A DNA stretch of 63,965 nt, filler included, from Babesia bigemina (taxonomy: Eukaryota): NCBI RefSeq assembly GCF_000981445.1. It is 12 parts of 12 records of this genome, joined end to end, with 100 filler letters (N's around TTAATTAATTAA, not from the genome) between each part and the next. Parts side by side here need not be neighbours in the genome. Positions count along the whole stretch, not along the records: positions 33,177 to 36,652 come from NW_012236948.1; 11 more parts are not named here. The stretch is one strand, 5' to 3'. Within the stretch, counting starts at the first letter, position 1. Every line of letters begins with the position of its first letter. A model generated the notes under the pieces. It made no database searches and was not told where the DNA came from. It saw only the letters and a program-made list of their open reading frames with translations. Shown one piece after another: positions 19,215 through 54,500 of the stretch. Both the position numbers and the translations under genes were made by a program.

Positions 19215-19510
19215 AGCAACGTGTTGACCTAGCAACCAGGTGAAGTGCTAACCTAGCACCCAGGCAACGTGTTGAGCTAGCACCCAGGCAACGTGCTAAG
19301 CTGGCACCCAGGCAAAGTGCTAAGCTAGCACCCAGGCAACGTGCTAAGCTGGCACCCAGGCAAAGTGCTAAGCTAGCAACCAGGCAAAGTGTTAACCTAG
19401 CACCCAGGCAACGTGTCAACCTAGCAACCAGGCAAAGTGCTAAGCTAGCACACAGGCTACGTGCTAAGCTAGCACCCAGGCAAAGTGCTAACCTAGCAAA
19501 CAGGCTAAGT
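19215..19510. repeat. Repeat C array
   Basis: 24-bp units. Confidence 0.94.
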
Positions 19511-19522
19511 TGATGCTTACTG

Positions 19523-19700
19523 TAGCGATGACATGGTCACGGCAGCGATGACATGGTCACGGCAGCGATGACATGGTCACGGCAGCGATGACATGGTCAC
19601 GGCAGCGATGACATGGTCACGGCAGCGATGACATGGTTAAGGCAGCGATGACATGGACACGGCAGCGATGACATGGTCACGGCAGCGATGACATGGTGAC
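19523..19700. repeat. Repeat B array
   Basis: GGCAGCGATGACATGGTCAC units. Confidence 0.95.
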
Positions 19701-19716
19701 CTAAGTGGTGATTATT

Positions 19717-20016
19717 ATCCACTCTACATCGCCCCTTAACCCACTCTACATCGCCCCTTAACCCACTCTACATCGCTCCTTTACCCACTCTACATCGCTC
19801 CTTAACCCACTCTACACCGCCCCTTTATCCACTCTACATCGCCCCTTTACCCACCCTTCATCGCCCCTTTACCCACTCTACATCGCCCCTTTACCCACTC
19901 TGCATCGCTCCTTAACCCACTCTACATCGCCCCTTATCCACTCTACATCGCCCCTTATCCACTCTACATCGCTCCCTTATCCACTCCACATCGCTCCCTT
20001 ATCCACTCTACATCGC
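19717..20016. repeat. Short repeat A array
   Basis: About 14 units of 22 bp between junction motif and leader. Confidence 0.95.
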
Positions 20017-25764: not shown

Positions 25765-25889
25765 TCGTACTCACGTGTTTACTATCCACACTCACCTAGC
25801 ATCACCTACTCACCTAACAAATGAATTGTGCTTTAATCTGTTGTATCACTCATTAATCGTTGTATGTGATTGTGTAGTAGTTAACTAAA

Positions 25890-26055
25890 GTGCTGACCAA
25901 TGCCATGACCAAAGTGCTGACCAAGGTGCTGACCAAAGTGGTGACCTATGTGCTGACCAAAGCCATGACCAAAGTGCTGACCAATGCCATGCCCAACCTG
26001 GTGACCAATGTGCTGACCAAGGTGCTGACCTATGTGCTGACCAAGCACCTGACCA
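25890..26055. repeat. 12-bp tandem array (repeat E) downstream of class II gene
   Basis: Unit GTGCTGACCAA(A/G/T) with GCCATGACCAA variants. Confidence 0.92.
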
Positions 26056-26059
26056 AGTT

Positions 26060-27380
26060 GATGTTCACGGCAGCGATGAAATGGTCACGGCAGCGATGAC
26101 ATGGTCACGGCAGCGATGACATGGTCACGGCAGCGATGACATGGTCACGGCAGCGATGACATGGTCACGGCAGCGATGACATGGTTACAGCAGCGATGAC
26201 ATGGTTACCAAGTTAGTGGTCACGGCAGCGGTGACATGGTTAGGCAGCGATGTCATGGTTACGGCAGCGATGACATGGTCACGGCAGCGATGAGATGGTC
26301 ACGGCAGCGATGACATGGTTATGGTTACGGCAGCGATGACATGGTTATGGTTACGGCAGCGATGACATGGTTATGGTCACGGCAGCGATGAGATGGTCAC
26401 GGCAGCGATGATGAGGTCACGGCAGCGATTACATGGTCACGGCAGCGATGACATGGTCACGGCAGCGATGACATGGTCACGGCAGCGATGACATGGTTAC
26501 GGCAGCGATGACATGGTCACGGCAGCGATGAGATGGTCACGGCAGCGATGATGAGGTCACGGCAGCGATTACATGGTCACGGCAGCGATGACATGGTCAC
26601 GGCAGCGATGACATGGTTACGGCAGCGATGACATGGTCACGGCAGCGATGAGATGGTCACGGCAGCGATGACATGGTCACGGCAGCGATGATGAGGTCAC
26701 GGCAGCGATTACATGGTCACGGCAGCGATGACATGGTTATGGCAGCGATGACATGGTCACGGCAGCGATGAGATGGTCACGGCAGCGATGACATGGTCAC
26801 GGCAGCGATGACATGGTCACGGCAGCGATGACATGGTTATGGTTACGGCAGCGATGACATGGTTATGGTCACGGCAGCGATGACATGGTAACGGCAGCGA
26901 TGACATGGTCACGGCAGCGATGACATGGTTACGGCAGCGGTGACATGGTTAGGCAGCGGTGACATGGTCACGGCAGCGATGACAAGGTCACGGCAGCGAT
27001 GTCATGGTTACGGCAGCGATGACAAGGTCACGGCAGCGATGACATGGTTACAGCAGCGATGACATGGTTACAGCAGCGATGACATGGTTACCAAGTTAGT
27101 GGTCACGGCAGCGATGACATGGTCACGGCAGCGATGACATGGTCACGGCAGCGATGACATGGTTACAGCAGCGATGACATGGTTACCAAGTTAGTGGTCA
27201 CGGCAGCGGTGACATGGTCACGGCAGCGATGACTTGGTCACGGCAGCGATGACATGGTCACGGCAGCGATGACATGGTTACGGCAGCGATGACATGGTCA
27301 CGGCAGCGATGAGATGGTCACGGCAGCGATGACATGGTTATGGTCACGGCAGCGATGAGATGGTCACGGCAGCGATGACA
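26060..27380. repeat. 1.3-kb repeat B array
   Basis: 20-bp units with occasional insertions. Confidence 0.97.
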
Positions 27381-27404
27381 GTGGTGACCAAAGTGGTGAT
27401 TATT

Positions 27405-27877
27405 ACCCACTCTACATCGCCCCTTTAACCACTCTACATCGCCCCTTTAACCACTCCACATCGCTCCTTTATCCACTCTACATCGCTCCCTAACCCACTC
27501 TACATCGCCCCTTTATCCACTCTACATCGCCCCTTTACCCACTCTACATCGCTCCCTAACCCACTCTACATCGCCCCTTAACTTCCTCTAATCGCTCCCT
27601 AACCCACTCTACATCGCCCCTTTACCCACTCCACATCGCTCCCTAATCCACTCTTCATCGCTCCCTAACTCACTCCACATCGCTCCCTAACTCACTCCAC
27701 ATCGCTCCTTAACCCACTCCACATCGCTCCTTACCCACTCTACATCGCTCCCTAACCCACTCCACATCGCTCCCTAACCCACTCTACGTCGCCCCTTTAC
27801 CCACTCTACATCGCTCCCTAACCCACTCTACATCGCCCCTTTATCCACTCCACATCGCTCCTTATCCACTCCACATC
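27405..27877. repeat. Repeat A array
   Basis: 22-bp units. Confidence 0.96.
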
Positions 27878-28067
27878 CGCCGAATCACCTCGCCATATTA
27901 CCGCTATGACCTCTATTAACCATCCTAATAACTTGTGCCTTGTCACCCTTCACTTCCCTTCTTCCACCTCTTGCCACTGCCATGTCCCATCATGTTCACC
28001 TTAACTCCAAATCTCTCGAATTACTTCGCCTTATTAATGCTATGACCTCTGTAAACCTTAATAATAA

Positions 28068-28226
28068 CTTGTTGATGCCGACCATTCTCTTACTGATGAT
28101 GCTACTAAGAAAGCCTTGAAGGACATTGAGTCCAAGCTCATTAGCCTTGGTCACCTTGCTGGTCAACTTGGAGGATTTGTTGGTGAGAGTGAGAGTGTTA
28201 AGAAAGCCGTTAAGAAGGCTATATCG
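28068..28226 (+). pseudogene. 5' fragment of a ves-like gene, no in-frame ATG, cut by contig end
   Basis: My translation LVDADHSLTDDATKKALKDIESKLISLGHLAGQLGGFVGESESVKKAV matches ORFs 46951 and 36064; TAA at 28065 directly upstream. Confidence 0.75.
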
Positions 28227-31046: not shown

Positions 31047-31069
31047 TGATATATACCACTTACGTCACC

Positions 31070-31585
31070 ACTGTCATCGCTGCCGCAACCGTGTCATCGC
31101 TGCCGTGACCATGTCATCGCTGCCTAACCATGTCACCGCTGCCTAACCATGTCACCGCTGCCGTGACCATGTCATCGCTGCCGTGACCATGTCATCGCTG
31201 CCGTCACCACTGTCATCGCTGCCGTGACCATGTCATCGCTGCCGTGTCCATGTCATCGCTGCCGTGACCATCAACTGTCATCGCAGCTGTAACCATGTCA
31301 TCGCTGCCTAACCATGTCATCGCTGCCGTGACCACTGTCATCGCTGCCGTGACCATGTCATCGCTGCCGTGTCCATGTCATCGCTGCCGTGACCATCAAC
31401 TGTCATCGCAGCTGTAACCATGTCATCGCTGCCTAACCATGTCATCGCTGCCGTGACCATCAACTGTCATCGCAGCTGTAACCATGTCATCGCTGCCGTG
31501 ACCATGTCATCGCTGCCGTGACCATCTCACCACTTAGGTCACCACTGTCTTCGCTGCCGTGACCATGTCATCGCTGCCGTGACCA
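31070..31585. repeat. Repeat B array, followed by a few repeat E units (31590-31650)
   Basis: 20-bp units. Confidence 0.94.
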
Positions 31586-31742
31586 CTAACTTGGTCATGG
31601 CATTGGTCAGCACTTTGGTCATGGCATTGGTCATGGCATTGGTTAGGTGGTTGGTCACCTCGCTGCCCATGCAATTGATCATCAACGCAATCGTTACTCT
31701 GTCGAAAACATTAGATGTCAGTCGCCAGTTAGGTTATTGTGA

Positions 31743-32183
31743 TCAGCTGCGCAGTAGATACCGCACCCTGTGGAAGGGCCGGATGCGGAAGTAGACCATG
31801 GCGCAAATGACGACGACGATGAGGGCGACGGGGACGATGATGTAAGGGGCGGGGTTGGAGGGAGAGGTAGATGGTGGACCGGTGTGAGGATCTGCACGGG
31901 GGGGAGAGGCGGCACGGGAGGAAGAAGAGCCACGCTGTGGACTGGGGGAATCAGGGGAACGATATACTTTTATGCGTTTCGCGACACAACAGTTACATTG
32001 ACACCTGGTGTCACATTGTTTACATCTCACATGATCGCACTGCTCTACTCCACTCATGAGCGAAAGTCGAAACTTAGCGCATCGAAGACAATATTGCTCA
32101 CATCCTCCACAACACCACGGACAACAATAACATTTAGTTAAGGTACAGGTTGTCTTACACTTACACGGCGGAGTATAGCTCAT
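31743..32183 (-). CDS. Small Cys-rich CCPWCC protein with Ser/Pro linker, TM and basic tail, 146 aa
   Basis: ATG in GGGGAAG-ATG context; CYCCPWCC; TM IIVPVALIVVVICAMVYF; same position between repeats D and B as 963-1532. Confidence 0.8.
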   Translation of the reverse strand: MSYTPPCKCKTTCTLTKCYCCPWCCGGCEQYCLRCAKFRLSLMSGVEQCDHVRCKQCDTRCQCNCCVAKRIKVYRSPDSPSPQRGSSSSRAASPPRADPHTGPPSTSPSNPAPYIIVPVALIVVVICAMVYFRIRPFHRVRYLLRS

Positions 32184-32184
32184 C

Positions 32185-32965
32185 TTCCCCTCTCCCTCCC
32201 ACTCCCCTCAACCTGCAGACATATCAATCACCTAGCAACGCACTCACCAACTGCAACACGTACCACTGCCGCTACCACTCCCCTCAACCTGCGAACATGT
32301 CAATCACCTAGCAACGCACTCACCAACTGCAACAATACCACTGCCGCTCCCAGTCCCCTCAACCTGCAGACATATCAATCACTTAGCAAGCACTCACCTA
32401 CTACAACACGCACCACTCCCGCTCCCACTCCCCTCAGCCTGCAAGCATATCAGTCACCTGAGCAACGCACTCACCAACTGCAACACGTACCACTGCCGCT
32501 CCCAGTCCCCTCAACCTGCAAACATATCAATCACTTAAGCAGCACTCACCAACCACAACACGTACCACTGCCGCTCCCAGTTCCCTCAACCTGCAAGCAT
32601 ATCAATCACTCAAGCAAGAACTCACCAATTGCAACACTACCACTGCCGCTCCCACTCCCCTCAACCTGCAAACATATCAATCACTCAAGCAACGCACTCA
32701 ACAACTGCAACACGTACCACTGCCGCGCCCAGTCCCCTCAACCTGCGAACATATCAATCACCTAGCAACGCACTCACCAACTGCAACACGTACCACTGCC
32801 GCGCCCAGTCCCCTCAACCTGCGAACATATCAATCACCTAGCAACGCACTCACCAACTGCAACACGTAACACTCCCACTCCCAGTCCCCTCAACCTGCAG
32901 ACATATCAATCACCTAGCAAGCACTCACCAACTGCAACTCGTACCACTGCCGCTCCCAGTCCCCT
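32185..32965. repeat. Repeat D array (~10 units of ~76 bp)
   Basis: ATATCAATCA-like word recurs at 32221, 32297 and onward. Confidence 0.95.
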
Positions 32966-33176
32966 CATCAACACGTACCCTCACCCCTGTATCCCCCAGC
33001 CCCGGCCACCGACACCCACGCTGCCCGGGATACCACAGCTGCCCTGACGCGACGCATGTGATCAGCACCAACTGTCNNNNNNNNNNNNNNNNNNNNNNNN
33101 NNNNNNNNNNNNNNNNNNNNTTAATTAATTAANNNNNNNNNNNNNNNNNNNNNNNNNNNNNNNNNNNNNNNNNNNN

Positions 33177-36085
33177 TCAAGCAGGGGGGTCGTGGTCCTG
33201 GCAAAGGATTCGGGAGCGAGGGTGGCAGTTGCGGAGGAGAGACTGTCAAGCAAGGCGGGGAGTTCGTGGTTATAGCGGTGGCTTGTATTAATGTGATCAA
33301 GTAGGTTGTTGATCGCGGTATGTGCAGCGTTGAGCCTGGAGGTGTAGAGCTTCTCAAGGTATTTCGATTCAGTGTGTGTTAGCTGGTAATTAAGCGTTTG
33401 TTTGTACTGCTTGTCCAGCCTCGAAATCTCTTCCTTGACGTAGCCGTGGATATTGTTGAAGTAATGCTCGAAGGCATCTACTAAGGCCTTGAAATGTTCC
33501 TTGGTTGGCCTCTCTTCCTCGGGTGGCGGAGGTACAGCGTTCTTAATTGCATCAAACAGCTTAGTACCTCCCGACGTGTAGAACTCAGCTTCCTTTTTGT
33601 GTTCAGCAATAAACTTAACCCCCTGCACAGTCTTCATCAGCCCCTTGTAATCAATGGTCAGATCCTTGTCGATCAGCGTCGTCAGTCCCGTCAAGTGGCC
33701 CTGAACTCTGGCGGTGAAGTTTTGCAGCTCAGTCTTGAGGGTGGAGACGTAGTGCTTTTTGGCCTGGGTGGTGAGTGTTTTAATGGCGTCGGCAACTTGT
33801 TCATCGACATATTTTTCAAGTGCCTTGATTGTAACTTGTCCTGATTCAGTGGCTTTTTGAAGAAAGTCAGTGCATAGGGTGATAGTACCCTGTATCTCCT
33901 TGACACGTAGGTCGTCGATTTGTTTCCTGATCCCAGCCAGTTTCTCATCAATCTGCCCTTTTTTCATCTCCCTCATAAACCAGTTGACCTCGTTGGCTGC
34001 CCATCTCACCGCTGCGCAGAGCTCATTGAGGTTGTGTTTCACATTCTCAATGTTCTTGGTTTGCAGCAGGCCAATATCATTTTTGATCGTCTCGAGGCCT
34101 TTGACGGGGGCGTGACTTTCCAAGCCCTTTGCGGTGAGGTTGACAGTACCTCCACCGGTACGCATTTCATCAAGCGCACCTAAGTATTGTTGGATGCCGT
34201 CGTTTGAATCTTGACCGCCTTGCACTTTCGTGGTTGTTTTTGTAGCGCTGTCAACCAGCCCGGCGATTTCTTTTAGTTTCGTGGTGATTTGGTCGAAGGG
34301 GGATTGGAAAGTGGTCGATTTATCTATTTCTGATGCGAGGTCACCAGCAGTAAGCTTACTCGTCACCTGCCCCTCCACCGCCTCCTTCACCTTCCACAAA
34401 TCCTCTTTCAGCTTCCCGTCCATCTCTTTCACCTGCGTTAGAGCATCTTTAACCCATGTACCAATATTGCCCTTAATATGCTCCGCCGCCTTTCTCAGCT
34501 TCTCAGCCTTCTCTTTCATTGTCTCAGCTAACTTATAAATTTTGTCACTACCTGCACTTTTAGTCTCCACCATATCACCAATTGTCTTACACTTCTCCTT
34601 CGCCGCGCTAACAGCGCTCCCTGCAGCCTTATTCCATGTATCCAACTCTGTGACTCTCTGCTTCAATCCAGCTTCCAGTTCGCTGATTGATGTGTCCAGA
34701 TTTTTCTTGTGGTTCGGCTTTCTATCTTTTGCGGCTTCATCAACTTCTTTTTTTATTGCTCCCACCTGTTTTTCGATTACATTATCAATGAACGTTTTGG
34801 CCGTCTCCATCCACTTATCCAGATCCAGAAGATAATTTTCAAGCGTACGACAAATATGCCTACACTCCTTCAAAATGTTTTTGACCTTCTCATTTAGTAG
34901 ACTGATAAGTCCATTCACCTGGCTCCTAATCTCCTGATTCAACTTATCTTTTACGACTAACAGAACACTTGTAATTTTCGTCTCCATCTCCTCGTACTGT
35001 TCTTTCTCATTCTTCTGCACTCTGCCAAGACGCTGACCTTCACGCTCCACATTGTCTCTGGCTTTATTAATTTGTTCGTTTGCTTCATGGCCTAAATCTT
35101 TGATTTTATCTTTCAGATTAAATAAGTCTGCTTTAAATGTTTTGGCAAGCTTTTTACATTTTTCTACCATCTCAGTCACTTCAATTTTAGATTTCTCAAT
35201 TTTGTCTGCAAGAGGTTCAGCATCTTTTTCCTCTTTGGTAGGATATGTTTTCTTAATTTGATCTTGTATTGTTGTCATTTCATCATCTAAATCTGTTATC
35301 TTTTTTCTGACCTCACTGCTTCTTTCACTTACTGTATCATTATACTCCCGCACCCTCTGCGCCACCGTCTCAATGACCTCAAAACCCTTACGCCCGGTGG
35401 ATAATTTGGATTCAAAGTCAGTAACAATGTTTTCAAGTATATCTTTGCCTACTTTGTAAGGCTGTTTCTCGCTGACATCCTTAAGCACGCCACTCAAAAA
35501 TCCCATCACCGCGTCACACAGCCTGTCAAGGTCAGAGTACACTATCCCACTGCCATCGTAGCCTTTGGTAGCAGAGTTGAAGCCGAGGAATTTCTGAAGA
35601 CCGTCACATAAATTATCTAAGAGATTTTTAGGCTCATTTTGTTGATTATTAGAATTCTCATAAAATCCACAAAGCTTCTCCACTTTCTTCAAAGCCTCCA
35701 ACTTGGACTGCAATTTGGCTGACTCAGCAGAGGCAGAGGGGGAAGAAGGAGAGGGATTAAGAGGGTTATTAAGGCTATTAATACGTTGAGTAATTAGAGT
35801 AATTTCTTTCTTAACTGCTTCACTAAGCTCACTAATTTTCTGGTTGTCATCAGCCTGGCCATCAGACTTGACAGACTCAGAAAGCTTAGTAACATAAGAA
35901 GAGTAAACATCATTTAGGTCTTTTTTAAGGTGTGGATTAGTGTCGAAACAAGCTTTAATAGCTTTCACAACGGCTTTCTTAACACTCTCACTTTGACCAA
36001 CAAATCCTCCAAGCTGGCCAGCAAGGTGACCAAGGCTAATGAGCTTGGAGTCAATGTCCTGCAAGGCTCTTCTAGTAGCATCATG
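33177..36085 (-). pseudogene. ves-like gene, 3' end cut by contig edge, 5' leader replaced by a retroelement 3' end
   Basis: DIDSKLISLGHLAGQLGGFVG, GYDGSGIVYSDLDRLCDAVM; in-frame TAA immediately upstream, in the retroelement UTR. Confidence 0.75.
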
Positions 36086-36652
36086 TTAAATTAAGTTATC
36101 TCATCTTATAGTGTGCTATGTGGCTACGTGCCTAGGGCCGGTTTTCGTGTTTGCGGGGCTAACGCCTCACGCTGAAACCGGTTGCGGGATCCACGCCGGT
36201 CCATTGCCGGACGTCACTGGTGCCATCCATGCGGGCATCCATCCAGTTTGGGCTTGAGGGTCTTCTACGGAATCGTAGTCTTCTTTCGGCTTCATATCCC
36301 TCATCACTATTTTATGTGTTTCTTGGATCACTACCCTTTGTATGTGGGCTTCCATGCGATCCGATATGCCCAGGTCCCGTCTGTACTTGCTGTGCTCCTT
36401 TGTCACTATTCCCTCCCACGTCATAACGTAGGGGATAACCCTGATCTTGGTGTGCTGGTTAAACTGTCGCGCCTTGAGGTCCTCAATAAGGTCTTCATAC
36501 TTCTGCTTCTTGAACTTCTCCGTATCCACTAGGTTGTCTTGATTGGTGATTCCTATCTCCACGATGGTTATGGTGTTCCTCCGCCGATCCGCCAGGATGA
36601 TGTCTGGCCTGTTGTATTCCTTAGTCTTCTGAGTCTTGACCGTCTTGTCGTA
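36085..36652 (-). mobile_element. 3' end of an RLE-type non-LTR retrotransposon (endonuclease domain plus ~80-nt 3' UTR)
   Basis: Frame open from contig edge 36652 to TGA 36167: YNRPDIILADRRRNTITIVEIGITNQDNLVDTEKFKKQKYEDL...VIPYVMTWEGIV fits the RPD-x12-E...K-x2-KY signature of R2/R4/NeSL-like elements. No RT domain is visible because of truncation. Confidence 0.8.
36167..36652 (-). CDS. C-terminal restriction-like endonuclease domain of retrotransposon ORF (5'-partial)
   Basis: 161 open codons with PD-(D/E)xK-type motif. Confidence 0.8.
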   Translation of the reverse strand, partial: YDKTVKTQKTKEYNRPDIILADRRRNTITIVEIGITNQDNLVDTEKFKKQKYEDLIEDLKARQFNQHTKIRVIPYVMTWEGIVTKEHSKYRRDLGISDRMEAHIQRVVIQETHKIVMRDMKPKEDYDSVEDPQAQTGWMPAWMAPVTSGNGPAWIPQPVSA

Positions 36653-36752
36653 NNNNNNNNNNNNNNNNNNNNNNNNNNNNNNNNNNNNNNNNNNNNTTAA
36701 TTAATTAANNNNNNNNNNNNNNNNNNNNNNNNNNNNNNNNNNNNNNNNNNNN

Positions 36753-37387
36753 AAGGGGCGATGTAGAGTGGATAAAGGAGCGATGTAGAGTGGGTTAGGG
36801 AGCGATGTAGAGTGGTTTTAGGGGCGATCTAGAGTGGTTTAAGGGGCGATGTAGAGTGGTTAAAGGGGCGATGTAGAGGGGTTTAGGGGCCGATGTAGAC
36901 TGGGTTAAGGGGCGATGTAGAGTGGACTAAGGGGCGATGTAGAGTGGATAAAGGGCCGATTTAGAGTGGGTAAAGGGCCGATGTAGAGTGGGTTAGGGGC
37001 GATGTGGAGTGGATAGAGGGGCGATGTAGAGTGGGTTAAGGAGCGATGTAGAGTGGATTAGGGAGCGATGAAGGGTGGGTTAAGGAGCGATGTAGAGTGG
37101 ACAAAGGGGCGATGTAGAGTGGATAAAGGGGCGATGTAGAGTGGGTTAAGGAGCGATGTGGAGTGGATAAAGGGGCGATGTAGAGTGGGTTAAGGGGCGA
37201 TGTGGAGTGGTTTAAGGGTCGATGTAGAGTGGATTAGGGAGCGATGTGGAGTGGGTTAGGGAGCGATGTGGAGTGGGTTAAGGAGCGATGTAGAGTGGAC
37301 AAAGGAGCGATGTGGAGTGGATAAAGGGGCGATGTGGAGTGGATAAAGGGGCGATGTGGAGTGGGTTAGGGAGCGATGTAGAGTGGA
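36753..37387. repeat. Repeat A array
   Basis: 22-bp units. Confidence 0.95.
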
Positions 37388-37407
37388 TGATAAAAATCAC
37401 TTAGGTC

Positions 37408-38513
37408 ACCATGCCACCGCTGCCGTAACCATTAACTGTCATCGCTGCCGTAACCATTAACTGTCATCGCTGCCGTAACCATGTCATCGCTGCCGTGTCC
37501 CTGTCATCGCTGCCGTGACCATGTCATCGCTGCCGTGACCATGTCATCGCTGCCGTGACCATGTCATCGCTGCCGTGACCATGTCATCGCTGCCGTGACC
37601 ATGTCATCGCTGCCGTAACCATGTCATCGCTGCCGTGACCATGTCATCGCTGCCGTAACCATGACATCGCTGCTGTGTCCATGTCATCGCTGCCGTAACC
37701 ATGTCATCGCTGCCGTGACTATGACATCGCTGCCGTGACTATGACATCGCTGCCGTGACTATGTCATCGCTGCTGTAACATGTCATCGCTGCCGTAACCA
37801 TGTCATCGCTGCCGTAGCCATGCCACCGCTGCCGTAACCATTAACTGTCATCGCTGCCGTAACCATTAACTGTCATCGCTGCCGTAACCATGTCATCGCT
37901 GCCGTGTCCCTGTCATCGCTGCCGTGACCATGTCATCGCTGCCGTGACCATGTCATCGCTGCCGTGACCATGTCATCGCTGCCGTGACCATGTCATCGCT
38001 GCCGTGACCATGTCATCGCTGCCGTGACCATGTCATCGCTGCCTTAACCATGTCACCGCTGCCTTAACCATGTCATCGCTGCCGTGACCATGTCATCGCT
38101 GCCGTGTCCATGTCATCGCTGCCGTGACCATGTCATCGCTGCTGTGAGCATGCCATCGCTGCCGTGACCATGTCATCTGCTTGGTCACCACTGTCATCGC
38201 TGCCGTGTCCATTTCATCGCTGCCGTGTCCATGTCATCGCTGCTGAGTCACTGTCATCGCTGCCGTGACCATGTCATCGCTGCCGTGACCATGTCATCGC
38301 TGCCGTGTCAATGTCATCGCTGCCGTGACCATGTCATCGCTGCCGTGACCATGTCATCGCTGCCGTGTCAATGTCATCGCTGCCGTGACCATGTCATCGC
38401 TGCTGAATCCCCTGTCACCGCTGCCGTGACCATGTCATCGCTGCCGTAACCAAGACATCGCTGCCGTAACCAAGACATCGCTGCCGTAACCAAGACATCG
38501 CTGCCGTGACCAT
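37408..38513. repeat. Repeat B array, followed by repeat E units (38515-38585)
   Basis: 20-bp units. Confidence 0.96.
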
Positions 38514-38707
38514 CAACTTGGTCATGGCATTGGTCAGCACATTGGTCAGCACTTTGGTCATGGCATTGGTCAGGTGCTTGGTCACCTCACTGCTCATGTG
38601 ATTGGTCATCAGTGCAATCATTACTGTCTACAACATTAGGTGTCAGTTGTCAGTTAGGTGATCAGTGGGATTTGGATTACGATGTTGGCGCTAACAGATT
38701 GCGGAGA

Positions 38708-38887
38708 TCAGCTGTAAAACGCGATGCAGAAGGGTATCTTGCGTACGAGGAAATCGCGGATGTTGCGGCCCACCGGAAAGCGGAAGATGCACAGGTCGAG
38801 CAGGATGATGGCGACGATGATGGCAACGATGACGGCGGCGATGACCGAGTAGGGAGTGGTCACCTCACTGCTCATGTGCTTGGTCAT
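38708..38887 (-). pseudogene. Isolated TM-plus-tail segment of the 963-1532 gene type (59-aa mini-ORF)
   Basis: MTKHMSSEVTTPYSVIAAVIVAIIVAIILLDLCIFRFPVGRNIRDFLVRKIPFCIAFYS; no Cys domain. Confidence 0.65.
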
Positions 38888-38947
38888 CAACGCGATCACT
38901 ATTTTGTCTATAACATTAGATGTCAGTTGCCAGTTAGGTTAACGTGA

Positions 38948-39094
38948 TCAGCTGCGCAGTAGATACCGCACCCTGTGGAACGGCCGGATGCGGAAGTAGA
39001 CCATGACGCAGATGACGACGATGATGAGGGCGACGGGGATGATGATGTAAGGGGCGGCAGTTATGGTCACCGCACTGCTCATGTAATTTGCCAT
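38948..39094 (-). pseudogene. Isolated TM-plus-tail segment of the 31743-32183 gene type (48-aa mini-ORF)
   Basis: My translation MANYMSSAVTITAAPYIIIPVALIIVVICVMVYFRIRPFHRVRYLLRS. Confidence 0.65.
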
Positions 39095-39191
39095 CAAGCA
39101 ATCATTACTGTCTACAACATTAGATGTGAGTTGCCAGTTAGGTGATCAATGGGATTATGATTAACAAAGTTTGCGCTAACAATCGCTGAGT

Positions 39192-39242
39192 TTAGCTGTA
39201 AAACGCGATGCAGAACGGTACTTTGCGTACGAGGAAATCGCG
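39192..39242 (-). CDS. 3' end of another 963-type gene or tail segment (cut by contig edge)
   Basis: RDFLVRKVPFCIAFYS-TAA. Confidence 0.6.
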   Translation of the reverse strand, partial: RDFLVRKVPFCIAFYS

Positions 39243-39344
39243 NNNNNNNNNNNNNNNNNNNNNNNNNNNNNNNNNNNNNNNNNNNNTTAATTAATTAANN
39301 NNNNNNNNNNNNNNNNNNNNNNNNNNNNNNNNNNNNNNNNNNAC

Positions 39345-41239: not shown

Positions 41240-41552
41240 GACCAAGCTAAGTGCTAAGCTGGCACACAGGCAAAGTGCTGAGCAAGCAACCAGGCTAAGT
41301 GTTGACCTAGCGACCAGGCAAAGTGCTAAGCTGGCACCCAGGCAAAGTGGTAAGCTAGCAATCAGGCAAAGTGGTAAGCTGGCATCCAGGCAAAGTGGTA
41401 AGCAAGCACCCGGGTAAAGTGCTAAGCAAGCAACCAGGCAAAGTGGTAAGCTAGCACACAAGCAAAGTGGTAAGCTGGCACACAGGCAAAGTGGTAAGCT
41501 AGCACACAGGCAAAGTGCTAAGCTAGCAACCAGGCAAAGTGGTAAGCTGGCG
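41240..41552. repeat. Repeat C array
   Basis: 24-bp units. Confidence 0.94.
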
Positions 41553-44159: not shown

Positions 44160-45265
44160 ACGACCGAGCAAAGTGTTAACCTAGCACCCAGGCAAAGTGC
44201 TAAGCTAGCACCCAGGCTAAGTGCTAAGCTAGCACCCAGGCAAAGTGCTAATCTAGCACCCAGGCTAAGTGCTAAGCTGGCACGCAGGCAACGTGCTAAC
44301 CTAGCAGACAAGCAAAGTGCTGAGCTAGCAAGCAGGCAAAGTGCTAAGCTAGCAACCAGGCAACGTGTTAAGCTGGCACACAAGCAACGTGTTAACCTAG
44401 CACACAGGCAAAGTGCTAACCTAGCATCCAGGCAACGTGCTATGCTAGCAACGAGGCTAAGTGCTAAGCTGGCGCCCAGGCAAAGTGGTAAGCTAGCACC
44501 CAGGCAACGTGCTAAGCTAGCAACCAGGCAAAGTGCTGAGCTAGCATCCAGGCAACGTGCTAAGCTAGCACCCAGGCGAAGTGCTAAGCTAGCAACCAGG
44601 CAAAGTGGTAACCTAGCAACCAGGCAACGTGCTAAGCTAGCACACAGGCAATGTGCTGATCTAGCACCCAGGCAAAGTGGTAAGCTAGTACCCAGGCTAA
44701 GTGCTAACGTAGCACGCTAGCTAAGTGCTAAGCTAGCACCCAGGCAACGTGGTAAGCTAGCACTCAGGCTAAGTGGTAACCTAGCACACAGGCTAAGTGG
44801 TAACCTAGCACCCAGGCAAAGTGCTAACCTAGCACACAGGCAAGGTGTTGACCTAGCAAGCAGGCAAAGTGCTAACCTAGCACTCAGGCAACGTGGTAAC
44901 CTAGCACCCAGGCAACGTGCTAAGCAAGCAACCAGGCAAAGTGCTAAGCTAGCAACCAGGCAAAGTGCTAAGCTGGCAACCAGGCTAAGTGCTAAGCTAG
45001 CATCCAGGCAAAGTGGTAAGCTGGCAACCAGGCTAAGTGGTAAGCTGGCAACCAGGCAAAGTGGTAAGCTTGCACTCAGGCAAAGTGCTAAGCTAGCACA
45101 CAAGCTAAGTGTTAACCTAGCACCCAGGCAACGTGGTAAGCTAGCAGCCAAGTAACGTGGTAAGCTAGCATCGAAGTTAAGTGCTACGCTAGCACACAAG
45201 CAACGTGCTAAGCTGGCACCCAGGCAAAGTGGTAACCTAGCAACCAGGCAAAGTGCTAAGCTAGC
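44160..45265. repeat. 1.1-kb repeat C array
   Basis: 24-bp units. Confidence 0.96.
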
Positions 45266-45770
45266 GGATGAACCGTAATTTGGTGGGTGTTGTAGCACGT
45301 TGATTAGTTGTTGCGTTGAGTTACGCGTTGACTGTGAGAGGTGTCCGCGTTGGCCATTGAGTCAGTGTCACGTGAGGCTGGGTGATTGGTCGCTAACGTA
45401 GGCGGTCGTGAGGGCCGCGGCGGGTGACCTAAGCCGTGTGTTGCGAGTCACTGGCAGGGTGGCGTAATCGGCGTTGGCCCGGTTAAGTAGCGTTTATGGG
45501 CAGCGATTTAGCGATCGTTAATATCACATTTAGGCACGTAGCGGACACGCTCCCCCAGCATGGCGCCGATACCGCGGCTCGTAGCACGGTGCTGCTGCAC
45601 TGTGGGAGTTGAGCGCACGTGGCTCGCTGCAATTTTTATGGCGTTGCGAATAGTGAATAATTTAAAGTGACAGTTGGTGCTGATGACATGCGTCGCGTCA
45701 GGGCAGCTGTGGTATCCCGGGCAGTGCGGGTGTCGGTGGCCCGGGCTGGGGGGATACAGCGGTGAGTGCG
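45265..45770 (+). promoter_or_regulatory. Copy of the conserved ~500-bp element
   Basis: Matches 41550-42045 and 63353-63865. Confidence 0.5.
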
Positions 45771-46073
45771 TTGGTGAGGGGACTGGGAGCGGCAGTGGTA
45801 CGTGTTGCAGTTGGTGAGTGCTGCTTGAGTGACTGATATGTCTGCAGGTTGAGGGGACTGGGAGCGGCAGTGGTACGTGTTGCAGTTGGTGAGTGCTGCT
45901 TGAGTGACTGATATGTCTGCAGGTTGAGGGGACTGGGAGCGGCAGTGGAACGTGTTAGTTGGTGAGTGCGTTGCTTGAGTGATTGATATATTCGCCGGTT
46001 GAGGGGACTGGGAGCGGCAGTGGTAGTGTTGCAGTTGGTGAGTGCTTGCTAGGTGATTGATATGCTTGCAGGT
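45770..46073. repeat. Repeat D array
   Basis: About four ~75-bp units; cut by linker. Confidence 0.92.
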
Positions 46074-46173: not shown

Positions 46174-46716
46174 CCACTCTACATCGCCCCTTTATCCACT
46201 CTACATCGCTCCTTAACCCACTCCACATCGCTCCTTTATCCACTCTACATCGCCCCTTTATCCACTCTACATCGCTCCCTTACCCACTCTACATCGCTCC
46301 CTAATCCACCCTACATCGCTCCTTAACCCACTCCACATCGCTCCTTAACCCACTCTACATCGCTCCTTAACCCACTCCACATCGCTCCTTTATCCACTCT
46401 ACATCGCTCCTTATCCACTCTACATCGCCCCTTTGTCCACTCTACATCGCTCCCTAACCCACTCCACATCGCCCCTTTACCCACTCTACATCGCCCCTTT
46501 ATCCACACTACATCGCTCCTTTACCCACTCTACATCGCTCCTTTATCCACTCTACATCGCTCCCTAACCCACTCTACATCGCCCCTTTATCCACTCTACA
46601 TCGCTCCTTTACCCACTCTACATCGCTCCTTTACCGACTCTGCATCGCTCCCTAACCCACTCTACATCGCCCCTTAACCCACTCTACATCGCTCCGTAAC
46701 CCACTCTACATCGCTC
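46174..46716. repeat. Repeat A array
   Basis: 22-bp units. Confidence 0.96.
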
Positions 46717-46902
46717 TAATTACCTCGCCATATTACCTTTATGACCTCCTTAAACCATCCTAATAACTTGTGCCTTGTCACCCTTCCCTTCCCTTCTTCC
46801 ACCTCTTGCCACTGCCAAGTCCCATCATGTTCACCCTAAGTCCAAATCTCTCGAATTACTTCGTCTTATTAACGCTATGACCTCCGTAAACCATTATAAT
46901 AA

Positions 46903-49900
46903 CTTGCTGATACTGACCATTCTCTTGCTGATGATGCTACTAAAAAAGCCTTGAAGGACATTGACTCCAAGCTCATTAGCCTTGGTCACCTTGCTGGTCA
47001 ACTTGGAGGATTTGTTGGTGAAAGTGAGAGTGTTAAGAAAGCCGTTCAAAAAGCTATTATCGCTGTAATTAACAGTAATGAAGAGCTTAAAAATGATTAC
47101 TCTTCTCATGTTACTACCCTTTCTGTGTCTGTCAACTCTGCTGACCAGGCTGTTGGCACCGGTGAAATTAGTGAGCTTAAGCAGAAAGTTGCTGATCAAA
47201 TTAAGCTTCTTAAAGAACGTGAATTGCAACTTCAAAATCAATTAAAAGATCCTTCTTCTTCCCCCTCTCCCTCTGCTGACTCAGCCGAATTGCACTCCAA
47301 GTTGGAGGCTTTGAGGAAAGTGGAGAAGCTTTGTGAATTTTATGAGAAACTTAAAACTATGCCAAATGAGCCAAAAAAGCTCTTAGAGAATCTTTGTGAC
47401 GGCCTTCAGACTTTCCTCGGCTTCGACTCTGCTTCCAAAGGCTACGATGGCAGTGGTATTGTGTACTCTGACCTAGATAGGCTGTGTGACGGGGTGATGG
47501 GATTTTTGAGTGGTGTGCTTGGTGCGGTGAAAGATGATGATGCGGTTAAAACGTATGATAAAGATACCACAAAAAACATTAATACAGTTATTAAGACTTT
47601 GAATGATAATATTGGCTCCGGGCGTGCTGGGCTTGTGGAGTCTGTCGCGGAGGTGAAGGGGTGGTTGGAGGGGTATGAATTAGAATACAGCAAAAAAGCA
47701 AGCAACGTCACAGAGTTTTTAGGTGAGTTGAAAAGCAACATAGCAGGTAAATATACATCTCAAATTCGTGCAGGTGAGAAATTGACTAGACAGCTGGAGG
47801 AGTGGAGGCGCATCGTGGAGAACATCCAGAGTGACATAAAAACTATTGAAACTAATTATGTAATTTATTTAGACGATGAATTGAGATGTAAAATACGTAG
47901 TGAAATAATATTAGTTAAAAAATCCGTAGAGGTTTTACGTGATTCAGCTTGCAACATTAGTGTCAACGAACAGGCCAAGCACGTAGATACGCATTTAGAT
48001 GAGCAAAAACGAAATCTGGAAAAAGCAGTCACAGATGGGAGTGAAAACGTTAAACGCACTTTACAAATAAATTTTACAAAAATACTCGACGCAATGTATG
48101 ACTTACGTGAACAAAGAAAACACCACTTTGAAAAGTGCTATGAGAGGTTAAGGGAGGCGAATAAACACTTGAAAAGTCGTTTAGACAAATATAGCGGCAC
48201 TACTCGAGATGAGATATTTAGGTTATTTGATGAGATAATAAAAGAAGTAAAGAAGATTTACGGTGATATGAACTACAAAAAAGGGGAACTGGAAATGTTA
48301 GTCGAGGGGGCTGAGAAGACGCTGTCTGAATTATCTAAGAATTTTGAGAAAGATGTGAAAGCGGGTGTGAAGCAGGATTTGACGGCATTGAATGGTAACG
48401 TAAATGCACTAAAAAATGGTATGAGATCAATTTCCAACGGTCATGAGATTGTAGGAAAGGCGTTGACTCAGCTTAGTGCGTCTAAGCAACAGCTGCTGAG
48501 AACGACAGATCCAATTACGCAGAATTCAGAAGCACTGGTAGGTAAGTATAATGAAGACTTGAAGAAAAAATTCTACACCTTTGCGGAGGCACTAAAGGCG
48601 GCGAAATTGGATACTTTTCAAACAGAATTGCAGGCTGAATCCCGAAAACTTCGTAATTATTTTGAAAATCTGATGAAGATAAGTACTATACAAAAAGTGT
48701 CAACATCGGGCAGAAGTGAGGTCAAGGATCTTGTAGAGGAACTAAATGGTGCCATCGGTACCATTAATCAGAGGTATGACTCTCTTTCGACAGCATCATT
48801 AGTAGTTACTACAAATGCATTCGCCTCTGCTGTTAACACTGCAGCAGGGGCCATCAATAGACTCGGCACAATAATAAAACAGGAGTTCACTCAGGCGAAG
48901 CAAACGATCGATGACACCAAAGACAACAAAGAGTTGTTAACAGCTGTCGACGAACTCAAAAATCTTCAGTTGCTGCAAAACTCTATATACGGCGAGAGAG
49001 GAACAGCCGATGCACCTAAAACAGGATCGCTCGCCAAACTGATCGAGGAGTTGAGTACTGCAATCGGCACTACTTCAGGTGACGATGGCGGCAAACTTAA
49101 CAAAGCGATTGGCGCATTTGAGACGTCTGCTAAACAACAAATCATTGATGCTGCGACCAGCGCAATAGAAAAGGCTGCAGCTCAAGTGACTGCAGAAATG
49201 CAGAAATTTAGGGAAGAAGACGGTGGCGTATTTAGTAAGACTGAGTTGGGCAAAAAAGTTGCAGTTTTAAAAACACATATCAAAACACTCGAGGGATTCA
49301 TAAAGGAGAAAACACAAGGTACGCTTCACTTAAAGCTGAATGAAATTCAAAAAGATCTTGATATGCTCGATAAGCTAAAAATAGAAGACACAAACGAAGA
49401 ACATGATGGTGGAATTAACAAAATGAAAAAAGCAGCAGATAAGAAAATGCAAGAGTTGTATAATGAGATATTTGATAAAGTAAATGCTGTTTTTAACACG
49501 CTAAATGACGCCGATAGAAATCTAACACATACCATCGATATTGTCAGTGAAGGAGTTCACAGTGCGTATGCGGCGTCAACTAAATCTGTAGAAAATATAA
49601 AGGAATACTTGCTTAGTGTCACAAGTCAAGCTTTCGACACCGTAACGTCTGCCGTCCGAATATTGTTCTCCGAACAACACGTCGCCGACCTTGGAGGTCT
49701 TAAGACGTTGGTGGATGGTCAATTAAGAAAAATGGAACAAATAATTCAGAAAGATAGAAGAACAGCAATTAAAGGCCTGTTGCAAAATCTAAATGGCCGC
49801 ACGTATATTGTTAAAGCAGGTAAATATCCGAGGTTTGAGATGCCTTCCGGTACGTCTATGCTGGATGCAATCATACAGGTCGCGCAGTCCTCGACGTCGA

Positions 49901-50078
49901 CGCTAAATGGCGAAGCATATCTTCAGCAATTCCGACAATTATCGGAGAAATTCCACGCCTACTATAATAACGTTGACATTTATGTCGACAACCAAGTTAA
50001 AGATCCAACCTCCCCCCCGCCCACCGACCAAACCACCGACCCAGCCACCCAGCTAACCAAAATCAAAACTGACTTCGA
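46903..50078 (+). CDS. ves-like gene, 3'-partial; leader ATG not in frame
   Basis: Frame opens after TAA at 46900; DIDSKLISLGHLAGQLGGFVG; GYDGSGIVYSDLDRLCD; coiled-coil middle. Confidence 0.78.
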
Positions 50079-50178: not shown

Positions 50179-51576
50179 CTTCAACTCCGCGACTAGCGAA
50201 CTCACATCATTCTTAACTTTTTGGTTTACCACTTTTTTCAAGTTTTCTGCGGAATCTTCGAGCAGCTTTATAACCGCGTCGTAGTTCTCGCGTTCCTTTT
50301 TGGACATCGCCTCAACACGTGCAGTCTCAAGCTGAATACGCTCACGCGTAGTTTTTACACTGTCACGCAATTTATAATTAAGATCATTAATATGCTTAGT
50401 TAACTTAGTAAGTTTGGTGTCAAATGACTTTGCGCTGCTTATGCACGCATCTCTCAACTTATCAACGGGCGAGACAATCTTGCCGATTTCTTCTGGAGTC
50501 ATGATTTTCAAGTCCGTTTTATCTGGAATGCTAGTAATTGACTTGGTATACTCGTCTCTCACCTTACCTAATAGTTCATTAATCGGTTCACTTACCTTGT
50601 CATTTGAGTCTACAACTTTCTCATTGTACTGCTTCACCCTGCTGATGACACGGTCTACGACGCTCTTGAAGCCTTCAACACCTGAACATAATTTGGCATA
50701 TATTTCACGAATTAAACGGTCTAAAAACATTCGCTTACCTGATTCATAAGGCTGTTTCTCGCTGACATCCTTAAGCACCTGATACAAAAATCCCATCACC
50801 CCGTCACACAGCCTATCTAGGTCAGAGTACACAATACCACTGCCATCGTAGCCTTTGGAAGCAGAGTCGAAGCCGAGGAAAGTCTGAAGGCCGTCACAAA
50901 GATTCTCTAAGAGCTTTTTTGGCTCATTTGGCATAGTTTTAAGTTTCTCATAAAATTCACAAAGCTTCTCCACTTTCCTCAAAGCCTCCAACTTGGAGTG
51001 CAATTCGGCTGAGTCAGCAGAGGGAGAGGGGGAAGAAGAAGGATCTTTTAATTGATTTTGAAGTTGCAATTCACGTTCTTTAAGAAGCTTAATTTGATCA
51101 GCAACTTTCTGCTTAAGCTCACTAATTTCATCGGTGCCAACAGCCTGGCCAGCAGACTTGACAGACTCAGAAAGGGTAGTAACATGAGAAGAGTAATCAT
51201 TTTTAAGCTCTTCATTACTCTCAATTTCAGCGATAATAGCATTCTTAACGGCTTTCTTAACACTCTCACTTTCACCAACAAATCCTCCAAGCTTAACAAC
51301 AAGATCACCAAGCTGGACAATCTTCTCTTCAACAGACTTCAAGGCAGGAGATGGAGGATGTTTTTGGTGAGCCTTTATACAATCTTCTAGACATTTTTTA
51401 TTAAACTTTATATTGTGATTTTCAGCGATTTTTTCATCAGTGATTTCTGAGTTAGATTCTTTAAGCTTCTTAGTAGCATCACTAATCTGCTTCTCGTAGT
51501 ACTGACAGTAAGTCTCCTTATCAGAGTATTTGAAGGGGCAAGAAAGTTTCTTTTTTTCGGCTTCGAGGGACTTAAT
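50179..51576 (-). pseudogene. ves-like mosaic gene fused directly to repeat A (no leader, no start), 3'-partial
   Basis: Frame extends upstream of listed ORF as IKSLEAEKKKLSCPFKYSDKETYCQYYEKQI...HPPSPAL up to the first repeat unit. Confidence 0.78.
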
Positions 51577-51577
51577 T

Positions 51578-54500
51578 AGCGATGTAGAGTGGGATAAGGG
51601 GCGATGTGGAGTGGGTTAAGGGGCGATGTAGAGTGGATAAGGGGCGATGAGGAGTGGATAAAGGGGCGATGTATAGTGGGTTAAGGGGCGATGTAGAGTG
51701 GACAAAGGAGCGATGTAGAGTGGATAAAGGAGCGATGTAGAGTGGGTTAAGGGGCGATGTAGAGTGGGTTAGGGAGCGATGTAAGGTGGATAAGGGGCGA
51801 TGTAGAGTGGGTAAAGCGGCGATGTAGAGTGGGTTAGGGAGCGATGTAGAGTGGATAAAGGGGCGATGTAGAGTGGATAAAGGAGCGATGTAGAGTGGAT
51901 AAAGGGGCGATGTAGAGTGGGTTAAGGGGCGATGTGGAGTGGATAAAGGGGCGATGTAGAGTGGGTTAGGGAGCGATGTAGAGTGGGTTAGGGAGCGATG
52001 TAGAGTGGGTTAAGGGGCGATGTGGAGTGGAGTAAGGGGCGATGTAGAGTGGATAAAGGAGCGATGTAGGGTGGATTAAGGGGCGATGTAAGGTGAGTTA
52101 GGGAGCGATGGAGAGTGGATAAGGGAGCGATGTGGAGTGGGTTAAGGAGCGATGTAGAGTGGGTAAAGGAGCGATGTAGAGTGGATAGAGGAGCGATGTA
52201 GAGTGGGTTAGGGAGCGATGTGGAGTGGGTTAGGGAGCGATGTGGAGTGGGTAAAGGGGCGATGTAGAGTGGATAAAGGGGCGATGTAGAGTGGGTAAGG
52301 GGCGATGTAGAGTGGATAAAGGGGCGATGTAGGGTGGGTAAAGGGGTGATGAAGGGTGGTTAAAGGAGCGATGTAGAGTGGATTAAGGGGCGATGTAGAG
52401 TGGGTAAGGAGCGATGTAGAGTGGATTAAGGGGCGATGTAGAGTGGGTAAGGAGCGATGTAGAGTGGAAAAAGGGGCGATGTAGAGTGGGTTAGGGAGCG
52501 ATGTAGAGTGGATTAGGGAGCGATGTGGAGTGGGTAAAGGGGCGATGTAGAGTGGGTTAGGGAGCGATGTAGAGTGGATAAAGGGCGATGTAGAGTGGGT
52601 TAAGGGGCGATGTAGAGTGGATAAAGGGGTGATGAAGGGTGGTTAAAGGAGCGATGTAGAGTGGATTAAGGGGCGATGTAGAGTGGGTAAGGAGCGATGT
52701 AGAGTGGATTAAGGGGCGATGTAGAGTGGATAAAGGAGCGATGTAGAGTGGGTTAAGGGGCGATGTAGAGTGGATAAAGGAGCGATGTAGAGTGGATAAA
52801 GGGGCGATGTAAGGTGGGTTAGGGAGCGATGTAGAGTGGATTAGGGAGCGATGTAGAGTGGATTAGGGAGCGATGTAGAGTGGATAAAGGGGCGATGTAG
52901 AGTGGATAAGAAGCGATGTAGAGTGGGTTAAGGAGCGATGAAGAGTGGATAAGGGAGCGATGTAGGGTGGCTAAAGGAGCGATGTAGAGTGGATAAAGGG
53001 GCGATGTAGAGTGGGTTAGGGAGCGATGTAGAGTGGGTAAAGGGGCGATGTAGAGTGGATTAAGGGGCGATGTAGAGTGGATAAAGGGGCGATGTAGAGT
53101 GGGTAAAGGAGCGATGTGGAGTGGATAAGGGAGCGATGTAGAGTGGGTAAAGGGGCGATGTAGAGTGGATTAAGGGGCGATGTAGAGTGGATAAAGGGGC
53201 GATGTAGAGTGGGTAAAGGAGCGATGTGGAGTGGATAAGGGAGCGATGTGGAGTGGATAAAGGAGCGATGTAGAGTGGGTAAAGGGGCGATGTAGAGTGG
53301 ATTAGGGAGCGATGTAGAGTGGATTAGGGAGCGATGTATAGTGGATAGAGGAGCGATGTAAGGTGGGTAAAGGAGCGATGTGGAGTGGGTAAAGGAGCGA
53401 TGAAGAGTGGGTAAAGGGGCGATGTAGAGTGGATTAGGGAGCGATGAGGAGTGGGTAGAGGAGCGATGTAGAGTGGTTAAAGGGGCGATGTGGAGTGGGT
53501 AAAGGGGCGATGTAGAGTGGGTAAAGGGGCGATGTAGAGTGGATAGAGGAGCGATGTGGAGTGGGTAAGGGGCGATGTAGAGTGGGTTAGGTAGCGATGT
53601 AGAGTGGGTAAAGGGGCGATGTAGAGTGGTTAAAGGGGCGATGTAGAGTGGGTTAGGGGGCGATGTAGAGTGGGTTAAGGGGCGATGTGGAGTGGGTTAG
53701 GGGCGATGTAGAGTGGGTAAAGGGGCGATGTAGAGTGGATAAAGGAGCGATTAGAGGAGGTTAAGGGGCGATGTAGAGTGGATAAAGGGGCGATGTAGGG
53801 TGGGTAAAGGGGCGATGGGGAGTGGGTTAAGGAGCGATGTAGAGTGGGTTAGGGAGCGATGTAGAGTGGGTAAAGGAGCGATGTAAAGTGGGTAAAGGGG
53901 CGATGAAGGGTGGGTTAAGGGGCGATGTGGAGTGGATAAAGGGGCGATGTAGAGTGGATAAAGGGGCGATGTAGAGTGGATAAAGGGGCGATGTAGAGTG
54001 GGTAAAGGGGCGATGTAGAGTGGGTAAAGGGGCGATGTAGAGTGGGTAAAGGGGCGATGTAGAGTGGGTAAAGGGGCGATGTAGAGTGGGTAAAGGGGCG
54101 ATGTGGAGTGGGTTAGGGAGCGATGTGGAGTGGGTTAAGGAGCGATGTAGAGTGGGTTAAGGGGCGATGTAGAGTGGATTAGGGAGCGATGTAGAGTGGA
54201 TAAAGCGGCGATGTNNNNNNNNNNNNNNNNNNNNNNNNNNNNNNNNNNNNNNNNNNNNTTAATTAATTAANNNNNNNNNNNNNNNNNNNNNNNNNNNNNN
54301 NNNNNNNNNNNNNNCGCTCCTTAACCCACTCTGCATCGCCCCTTAATCCACTCTACATCGCTCCTTTATCCACTCCACATCGCTCCCTAACCCACTCCAC
54401 ACCGCCCCTTAACCCACTCTACATCGCCCCTTAACCCACTCTACATCGCCCCTTAACCCACTCTACATCGCCCCTTTATCCACTCTACATCGCCCCTTTA

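Follow-up and report, generated by a model that had tools for sequence, protein, structure and literature searches.

Does a retrotransposon joined to a variant-antigen gene of Babesia bigemina reveal an element aimed at the start of that gene family, or one insertion among many that landed loosely and were tolerated? The question is raised by position 36085 of a 63,965-nt stretch of this genome (hereafter the window), in which 12 short contigs are binned together with stop-codon linkers (N-TTAATTAATTAA-N) between them. One small, unplaced contig of 3,476 bp (33177-36652) carries, at one end, part of a retrotransposon of the type without long terminal repeats (non-LTR), with a restriction-like endonuclease (RLE) and, adjoining it, a ves1b-type gene. 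The answer we prefer, at a probability of roughly 60%, is that a young multi-copy RLE element entered a ves1b cassette, in its N-terminal part, with loose choice of site, and that copies of the element have piled up in ves1 islands by tolerance.

Element and gene lie in the same orientation, on the minus strand, within the single contig. The 3' part of the retrotransposon open reading frame (ORF; 36167-36652, minus strand) encodes 161 amino acids that include the RLE domain, a C-terminal tail, and the stop, and the end of the contig truncates it. The remainder is concealed behind an assembly linker (36653-36752, no strand), which joins contigs without known order. The 3' untranslated region (UTR; 36085-36166, minus strand) is 82 nt long, lacks poly(A), and terminates in TTAATTTAAC, and the DNA directly after TTAATTTAAC at 36085 is ATGATGCTACT. 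The ves1b-type variant antigen ORF (33177-36084, minus strand) is open for ∼970 amino acids, is cut by the other contig end, and has 49 Babesia homologs. An earlier note on this DNA had described an RLE-domain ORF with RLE/reverse transcriptase (RT) homology, a 3' UTR of ∼80 nt running from that terminus directly into ATGATGCTACT, co-orientation, and location inside one contig, all of which are borne out. Because the contig ends within the element, the element 5' end and any target duplication lie outside it; the element may have replaced the leader, as the earlier note had it, or displaced it. The window yielded no second piece of the element, its 5' UTR being among the parts looked for, no Rfam match occurs in 33000-39300, and the 3' end of the element folds no better than shuffled sequences (z 0.25).

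Protein comparisons show that the stretch belongs to a true non-LTR retrotransposon of the RLE type, and one that is the parasite's own. The window peptide is 100% identical to residues 1187-1347 of P0001, a 1,347-aa B. bigemina RT protein in which Pfam places RVT_1 at residues 640-881 (E 5e-30; YIDD at 818). After the RT come a CCHC knuckle (C1119, C1122, H1130, and C1135), RHN at 1146, and PD at 1202, E1218, and K1234; in the same numbering, the piece at 36167-36652 holds PD 1202-1203, E1218, K1234, and KY 1237-1238. The RLE and knuckle motifs are conserved across 68 homologs, and a profile of 68 relatives aligns with R2Tg without a break from the RT across the knuckle to the RLE (E 2.9e-59). 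A PDB search with the element protein returned L1 and R2 as best matches, and the top seven matches to its predicted fold (pLDDT 85.8) are R2. Alignment thus shows the domain order RT, CCHC knuckle, RLE, with the catalytic motifs intact. The RLE identity rests on the full-length protein and the profile and not on the 161-aa piece, for which Pfam alone gave no call of an RLE domain (its best match, Cas9_C at E 0.008, fell below the cut-off) and a single-sequence PDB search gave chance matches only (E > 0.6). The earlier note would have withdrawn its reading had the peptide lacked RLE/RT homology; that homology holds in profile and fold comparison.

Members of the R2 clade have one or more N-terminal zinc fingers plus a Myb domain. 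Pfam called no N-terminal zinc finger in the full-length Babesia protein. A three-helix domain gave a Myb-like lead (0.81) that fold searches left without confirmation: Foldseek returned no match under E 0.001, and the best VIA match (Z 6.5) is an unrelated protein. No targeting domain is established in the element protein by domain or fold searches. Named R4, Dong, or EhRLE reference sequences are absent from the homolog matches, and an R4/Dong label, suggested by a table entry for Nosema bombycis, would be tentative.

The junction (36084/36085, minus strand) is sharp. Downstream of it the window is identical to paralogs at 28096 and 46931 at 91 and 94 of 100 positions, respectively, and upstream it matches the paralogs at 14 of 51 positions where these match each other at 44 of 51. 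The insertion separates the ves ORF from its upstream spacer, and both intact paralogs are preceded by CTCTT(A/G)CTG, as had been reported. The further claim that the element is joined precisely to the 5' end of the gene does not hold. The ATG at the junction opens a frame of 39 codons that is out of register with the ∼970-aa ves ORF, which reads GAT-GCT-ACT there in a different frame. Empty-site alleles in three other runs (X1, X2, and X5) read GAC GAT at the site, without an ATG, and an empty allele in run X4 is identical at 54 of 54 positions over 36031-36084 and has non-element sequence upstream. The B. ovata protein P0034 is complete at its N-terminus and has LAGQL at residue 128; by homology with it, the junction falls near residue 112-113 of full VESA1b, or ∼codon 112-113 of the canonical gene. 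Only in the subfamily of 5'-truncated cassettes to which the paralogs in the window belong does ves homology begin close to this site. Annotated model P0019 joins MTS to residues immediately past the site, and given this model the junction bases could be intronic in some alleles.

Copies of the element elsewhere end at nearly the same base and run into different DNA. Terminal junctions in runs X3, X1, X4, and X6 end at 36084, 36085, 36086, and 36086, respectively, and all four flanks are unlike that of the window and unlike one another; the five terminal junctions, the window's included, have five flanks, and no single conserved target sequence occurs among them. Looser-ended junctions (36090-36111 in X2, X4, X5, and X6), some of which are mixed consensuses or divergent UTR variants, are outside this count. 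The copies are dispersed and share a defined 3' terminus. In the X3 copy, the terminal motif is repeated and the 3' flank matches, in antisense, the KKLSC codons of a ves gene (15/16; 0.01 expected by chance); the corresponding KKLSC-coding motif in another ves cassette of the window lies at 51537-51552 (minus strand), ∼80 codons upstream of LAGQL. The X3 copy is probably an antisense insertion in a ves gene, and a 4,608-nt X1 contig from the same sample, which begins at the element 3' end and finishes in opposite-strand ves sequence, fits an antisense insertion.

Gene models add further positions. P0183 joins a complete element to a ves1ba gene after it. P0063 is a ves protein that from ∼residue 811 on continues as sequence with 67% identity to the read-through immediately upstream of the element ORF in B. 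ovata. The element is mid-gene in P0016 of B. ovata, and in P0003 of B. caballi an element of 44% identity is fused to VESA1_N. Three further fusions, P0135 (with a Myb-annotated gene), P0011, and P0082, have no match to the ves set. Because the four terminal junctions and the gene-model fusions sit at different positions, there appears to be no fixed target, and site choice is likely loose. In the tabulation of 3' junctions that the earlier note proposed, the element terminus (36084-36086) is common to the copies and the target flank is not; the note's single target site is contradicted by flanks, positions, and probably orientation that vary among copies.

The four full-length B. bigemina sequences of 1,347 aa differ by one to four residues, and two of them each correspond to at least three accessions, partly in different gene contexts. 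Related proteins have identities of 75-78% in B. ovata, 44-53% in B. caballi, and 34-41% in T. equi, where they form an element cluster of 13 members. Contamination, which had been raised as a way for the note to fail, is rejected: identical or near-identical proteins are annotated on contigs of 2.8 and 3.5 Mb, and relatives occur in three other piroplasms. Since near-identical copies lie on large contigs and have relatives in other piroplasms, the element is, as judged from its sequences, multi-copy, native, and young, and it may have been active recently. A second, divergent family is present in B. ovata (P0068, BOVATA_006670; 47% identical to P0001), and Babesia has at least two element lineages. 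Over window positions 36090-36175, runs X2, X4, X5, and X6 have divergent 3' UTR variants and one AATAAC-like repeat tail, which suggests that the runs include related subfamilies or species.

Apicomplexan genomes carry few transposons. As a premise for piroplasms, on which the earlier note had leaned, this is outdated, as LINE-like elements (long interspersed nuclear elements) have been published for B. bigemina (133,787 nt, 0.97% of the genome), B. ovata, B. divergens, where copies are classed as R2-like, and T. equi (PMC9141347). Expansions of RT genes were noted for B. caballi (PMC10463595), and the B. bigemina rows of cluster 12 in Table S2 of PMC5660447 comprise 24 RT gene models and one Myb gene. 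Two B. bigemina RT-like genes, which may or may not be among the proteins studied here, are 1,931- and 128-fold higher in blood stages (PMC9806345). The 4,034-aa element and ves1ba model P0183 (BBBOND_0308820) is represented by nine peptides, from its element part, its ves part, or both, in a published proteome (PMC4066756 supplement).

The location of copies in the genome is biased. Neighbors of 10 chromosomal B. bigemina RT gene models were counted from rows of Table S2 of PMC5660447, with accession order used as locus order (the two track each other) and 10 random positions as controls (72 of 75 rows seen). If window and annotation share one assembly, these ten loci are insertions of the same strain and not of an independent one. 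A ves1 or ves1-cluster gene is found within two accessions of 10/10 RT models versus 1/10 controls (Fisher p 6e-5) and within one accession of 7/10 (p 0.01); when only genes labeled ves1 are counted, the numbers are five within one accession and seven within two. One copy is flanked by 6-Cys genes on both sides. Ves islands have been described as breakpoints that gather multicopy genes, possibly under weak purifying selection (Jackson 2014; PMC4066756), in an article whose available text does not contain the term reverse transcriptase. In B. ovata, eight loci were examined from the leading five rows of each ten-accession block. Three have ves or ebh genes within two accessions, three adjoin other multicopy surface families (MFS genes at two, a 6-Cys gene at one), one adjoins a Myb gene, and one core kinases. 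An element stands beside a Myb-annotated gene in both B. bigemina (CDR94894/CDR94896) and B. ovata (BOVATA_048210-048230), which may be an old insertion that the two species share. What the loci have in common appears to be a setting in variable multigene islands and not ves sequence. Genome-wide, the element is associated with the variant-antigen family more strongly than one junction could show. The earlier note is borne out as to this association and fails as to a join at the gene start and a single target site.

How could such a distribution arise? In R2-type biochemistry, a nick made in the target by the RLE serves to prime the RT, which starts at the 3' UTR. By analogy, the ORF protein would bind its own RNA, its RLE would nick DNA at loosely defined sites, and its RT would reverse-transcribe from the element 3' UTR. 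This would be target-primed reverse transcription, a mode of mobility to which the architecture and the near-identical copies point. Insertions in essential genes, or in the gene-dense core of a compact parasite that is haploid in the blood stage, would then be lost, and those in redundant, dispensable ves1 cassettes would persist under weak selection. We consider this combination of loss and persistence probable. Tolerance is favored over ves sequence as the cause because of the 3/8 loci in B. ovata, the MFS and 6-Cys neighbors, the copy flanked by 6-Cys genes, and the cluster in T. equi, a species not known to have ves genes.

Several observations weigh against this account. Standing copies do not tell selection from targeting. 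Neighbors in 10 of 10 cases are a high count for pure tolerance and fit active ves1 targeting, and no ves2 neighbor of a B. bigemina copy was found in the rows seen, in a table with 94 ves2 and 136 ves1 labels. The enrichment itself depends on how neighbors are classed: adjacency to labeled ves1 genes (5/10 vs. 1/10) is not significant (p 0.07), any ves gene, ves2 included, is near 4/10 controls (p 0.005), and five neighbors are absent from the table and so without identity. The flanks in X1, X4, and X6, probed at 18-21 nt, have no match in the window and are unassignable to ves. Finally, the window junction is unreproduced in six other runs. No contig bridging 36085 was found among the pieces listed in any of the six (8 of 11 pieces listed in X1, 5 of 5 in X3), and by their depth tables X2, X5, and X6 contain no bridge and X4 has no space left for one. 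We infer that the insertion at 36085 is polymorphic between isolates.

A possible though less probable explanation is that the element actively seeks out ves1 loci as regions and cuts them at varied sequences, guided for instance by silent chromatin, by the minisatellite arrays that flank the genes, or by a bound protein. It would account for all ten chromosomal copies being within two genes of ves1-type genes, for at least four copies that interrupt ves1 ORFs at differing positions, for the VESA1_N fusion in B. caballi, and for the lack of ves2 neighbors in the rows seen despite the number of ves2 genes. It sits less easily with the B. ovata element, which at 75-78% identity is near ves or ebh genes at 3/8 loci and in one case among core kinases, with relatives in T. 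equi and microsporidia, and with a protein in which no targeting domain is established; ves1 genes would also be longer targets than ves2.

That the element is real and the window junction a chimeric clone or misassembly we regard as very unlikely. The contig is small and unplaced, and nothing bridges the site among the pieces listed in the six runs, but it breaks no more than one base away from the terminus at which four other copies end, a position that a random chimera would rarely hit in an element of >4 kb. Element end and target also lack an overlap that could cause a misjoin (14/51), and other ves1 insertions exist. About as unlikely is that the ves association stems from a few insertions that gene conversion or segmental duplication carried from one ves locus to another. 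Sequences of ves1 routinely move between loci (PMC4066756) and the copies are nearly identical, yet junction positions and flanks vary among copies, and identical proteins stand beside 6-Cys, ves1b, and ves1a genes. The view of the earlier note, insertion that is specific for a sequence at the start of ves genes and so comparable to R2 or to the RHS hot spot of trypanosomes, has in its favor that this is an RLE element and that most RLE clades are target-specific (PMC4640811). It can be set aside almost entirely, as the ATG is out of frame and the site is used by none of the four other terminal junctions and none of the four ves fusions (P0183, P0063, P0016, and P0003).

The closest named relatives outside piroplasms are LINEs of microsporidia (Vairimorpha, Enteropsectra, Hamiltosporidium, and Dictyocoela), eukaryotes unrelated to piroplasms, with up to 44% identity where the RT-RLE region is nearly fully covered. 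Many unnamed metagenome proteins reach 42-45% and insect elements 26-29%; no tick-labeled protein is among the named matches. A scan of JGI metagenomes yielded 80 loci, one at 45% and the others at 24-37%. For trees, 22 of 121 rows were dropped for short coverage and subsets of 36 and 37 rows were used. Babesia elements form one clade (100/100 support), and those of Babesia and T. equi, whose joint monophyly the trees do not resolve, are inside a clade (100/99) that holds Enteropsectra, Vairimorpha, and Hamiltosporidium, with Dictyocoela outside. A mixture-model tree agrees (SH-aLRT 91), and an approximately unbiased test rejects microsporidian monophyly (p 0.013), a weak result as the group was named after the tree was seen and no mixture model was used. 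The phylogenetic comparison proposed in the earlier note thus places the piroplasm elements within a microsporidian clade. This nesting suggests, as the simplest reading, horizontal exchange of the lineage with microsporidia, with neither direction nor vector implied. Five close relatives (P0104, P0107, P0199, P0202, and P0129) are labeled as from a bacterial metagenome-assembled genome, octopus, wasp, or mite, and four of the five group with microsporidian elements and may be contamination of the assemblies concerned; the proteins labeled mite, octopus, and wasp lie within the clade or close to it. Transfers of microsporidian elements have been documented, with Apicomplexa unmentioned in the available text (PMC4202319). 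The Dong-R4 class is listed for N. bombycis (PMC3614468), and the microsporidian proteins matched here are not equated with it.

Among known systems, R2 (PDB 9nl3, 9dou, 9nl2, and 8gh6) is the best match in profile and fold, with the same single ORF of RT, CCHC knuckle, and C-terminal PD-(D/E)xK. The Babesia element differs from it in its 14-16% identity, the lack of a fixed rDNA site and of an N-terminal zinc finger called by Pfam, and the absence of poly(A) from the window copy. The trypanosome elements ingi and L1Tc encode an apurinic/apyrimidinic (APE) nuclease. In RHS genes, ingi/RIME and L1Tc likewise provide a case of non-LTR elements that interrupt, in a parasite of the blood, the 5' coding part of genes from a multigene family (PMC7563717), but RHS genes have one hot-spot site and encode nuclear proteins, whereas the Babesia element occupies varied positions and ves1 proteins are surface antigens. 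The element very likely belongs to the same family as published piroplasm LINE-like elements (PMC9141347, PMC10463595, and Table S2 of PMC5660447), and its RT models are cluster 12 of the B. ovata table. It has therefore already been noted in print as LINE-like. The survey in PMC9141347 did not address element locations, and in its available text the words ves, insertion, target, and horizontal have zero occurrences; the available parts of these three sources contained nothing on the RLE anatomy, the junctions, the enrichment near ves1, or the kinship with microsporidia. A link of the element to ves genes or microsporidia was not found in the literature either, nor was mention of the ves1 enrichment or microsporidian kinship (subscription journals, Repbase, and one supplementary file of PMC4066756 were outside the search).

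A young element with nearly all of its chromosomal copies in or next to ves1 genes makes two questions testable: whether mobile DNA disrupts or remodels the set of antigens of a pathogen of cattle, and whether RLE elements can give up sequence specificity in favor of a preference for regions. The position of the elements, nested among microsporidian ones, suggests that a horizontal transfer linked two intracellular parasites of unrelated lineages, and polymorphic insertions could be strain markers. Earlier work ascribed intron-poor ves1 copies to reverse transcription, as a hypothesis for the origin of B. bovis ves1-alpha (PMC4066756), for which the element supplies a candidate enzyme; B. bovis itself has no detected element and the earlier-branching B. 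divergens has one (PMC9141347). It is conceivable, if doubtful, that an element acquired from microsporidia and steered to ves1 islands would aid truncation, relocation, and intron-poor copying of ves1 genes through its nicks, dispersed 4-kb homology, and RT. Nothing in the data indicates a role for the element in antigen shuffling.

The cassettes of the window bear on this last point. Homologs of the interrupted ORF, P0042 (E 1e-21) and P0058 (E 1e-16), map by accession arithmetic to rows labeled ves1b, and other ves ORFs in the window carry the VESA1 C-terminal motif, the interrupted one being cut at 33177. One uninterrupted paralog (46717-50078, plus strand) has a spacer (46717-46930) after a 22-bp array and then the ves ORF; another (27878-28226, plus strand) has the spacer and ves coding sequence up to the contig end. 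Seven ves cassettes besides the interrupted one have their 5' side present, and all seven are preceded by a 22-bp minisatellite array; six share a conserved spacer of 80-100 nt (86-91% identical), and ves homology begins at differing codons among the seven. A six-frame search found no canonical ves first exon at array-preceded cassettes. This arrangement resembles that of silent donors behind repeats, such as the VSG 70-bp repeats. Because upstream arrays and spacer are common to the cassettes, recombination, rather than the element, is suggested as the source of the truncated cassettes, and the notion that the element's RT or nuclease made truncated, shuffled cassettes is unsupported. Stretches associated with the 22-bp array lie at 8396-12653, 12757-14126, 19715-20016, 27403-27877, 46174-46716, 51579-54214, and 54315-54623. 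Minisatellites of 12, 20, 24, and 75 bp recur between ves cassettes, and further minisatellites are located at 19229-19697, 25887-27385, 31063-32967, 37462-38611, 41242-41551, 44168-46073, and 59853-60252.

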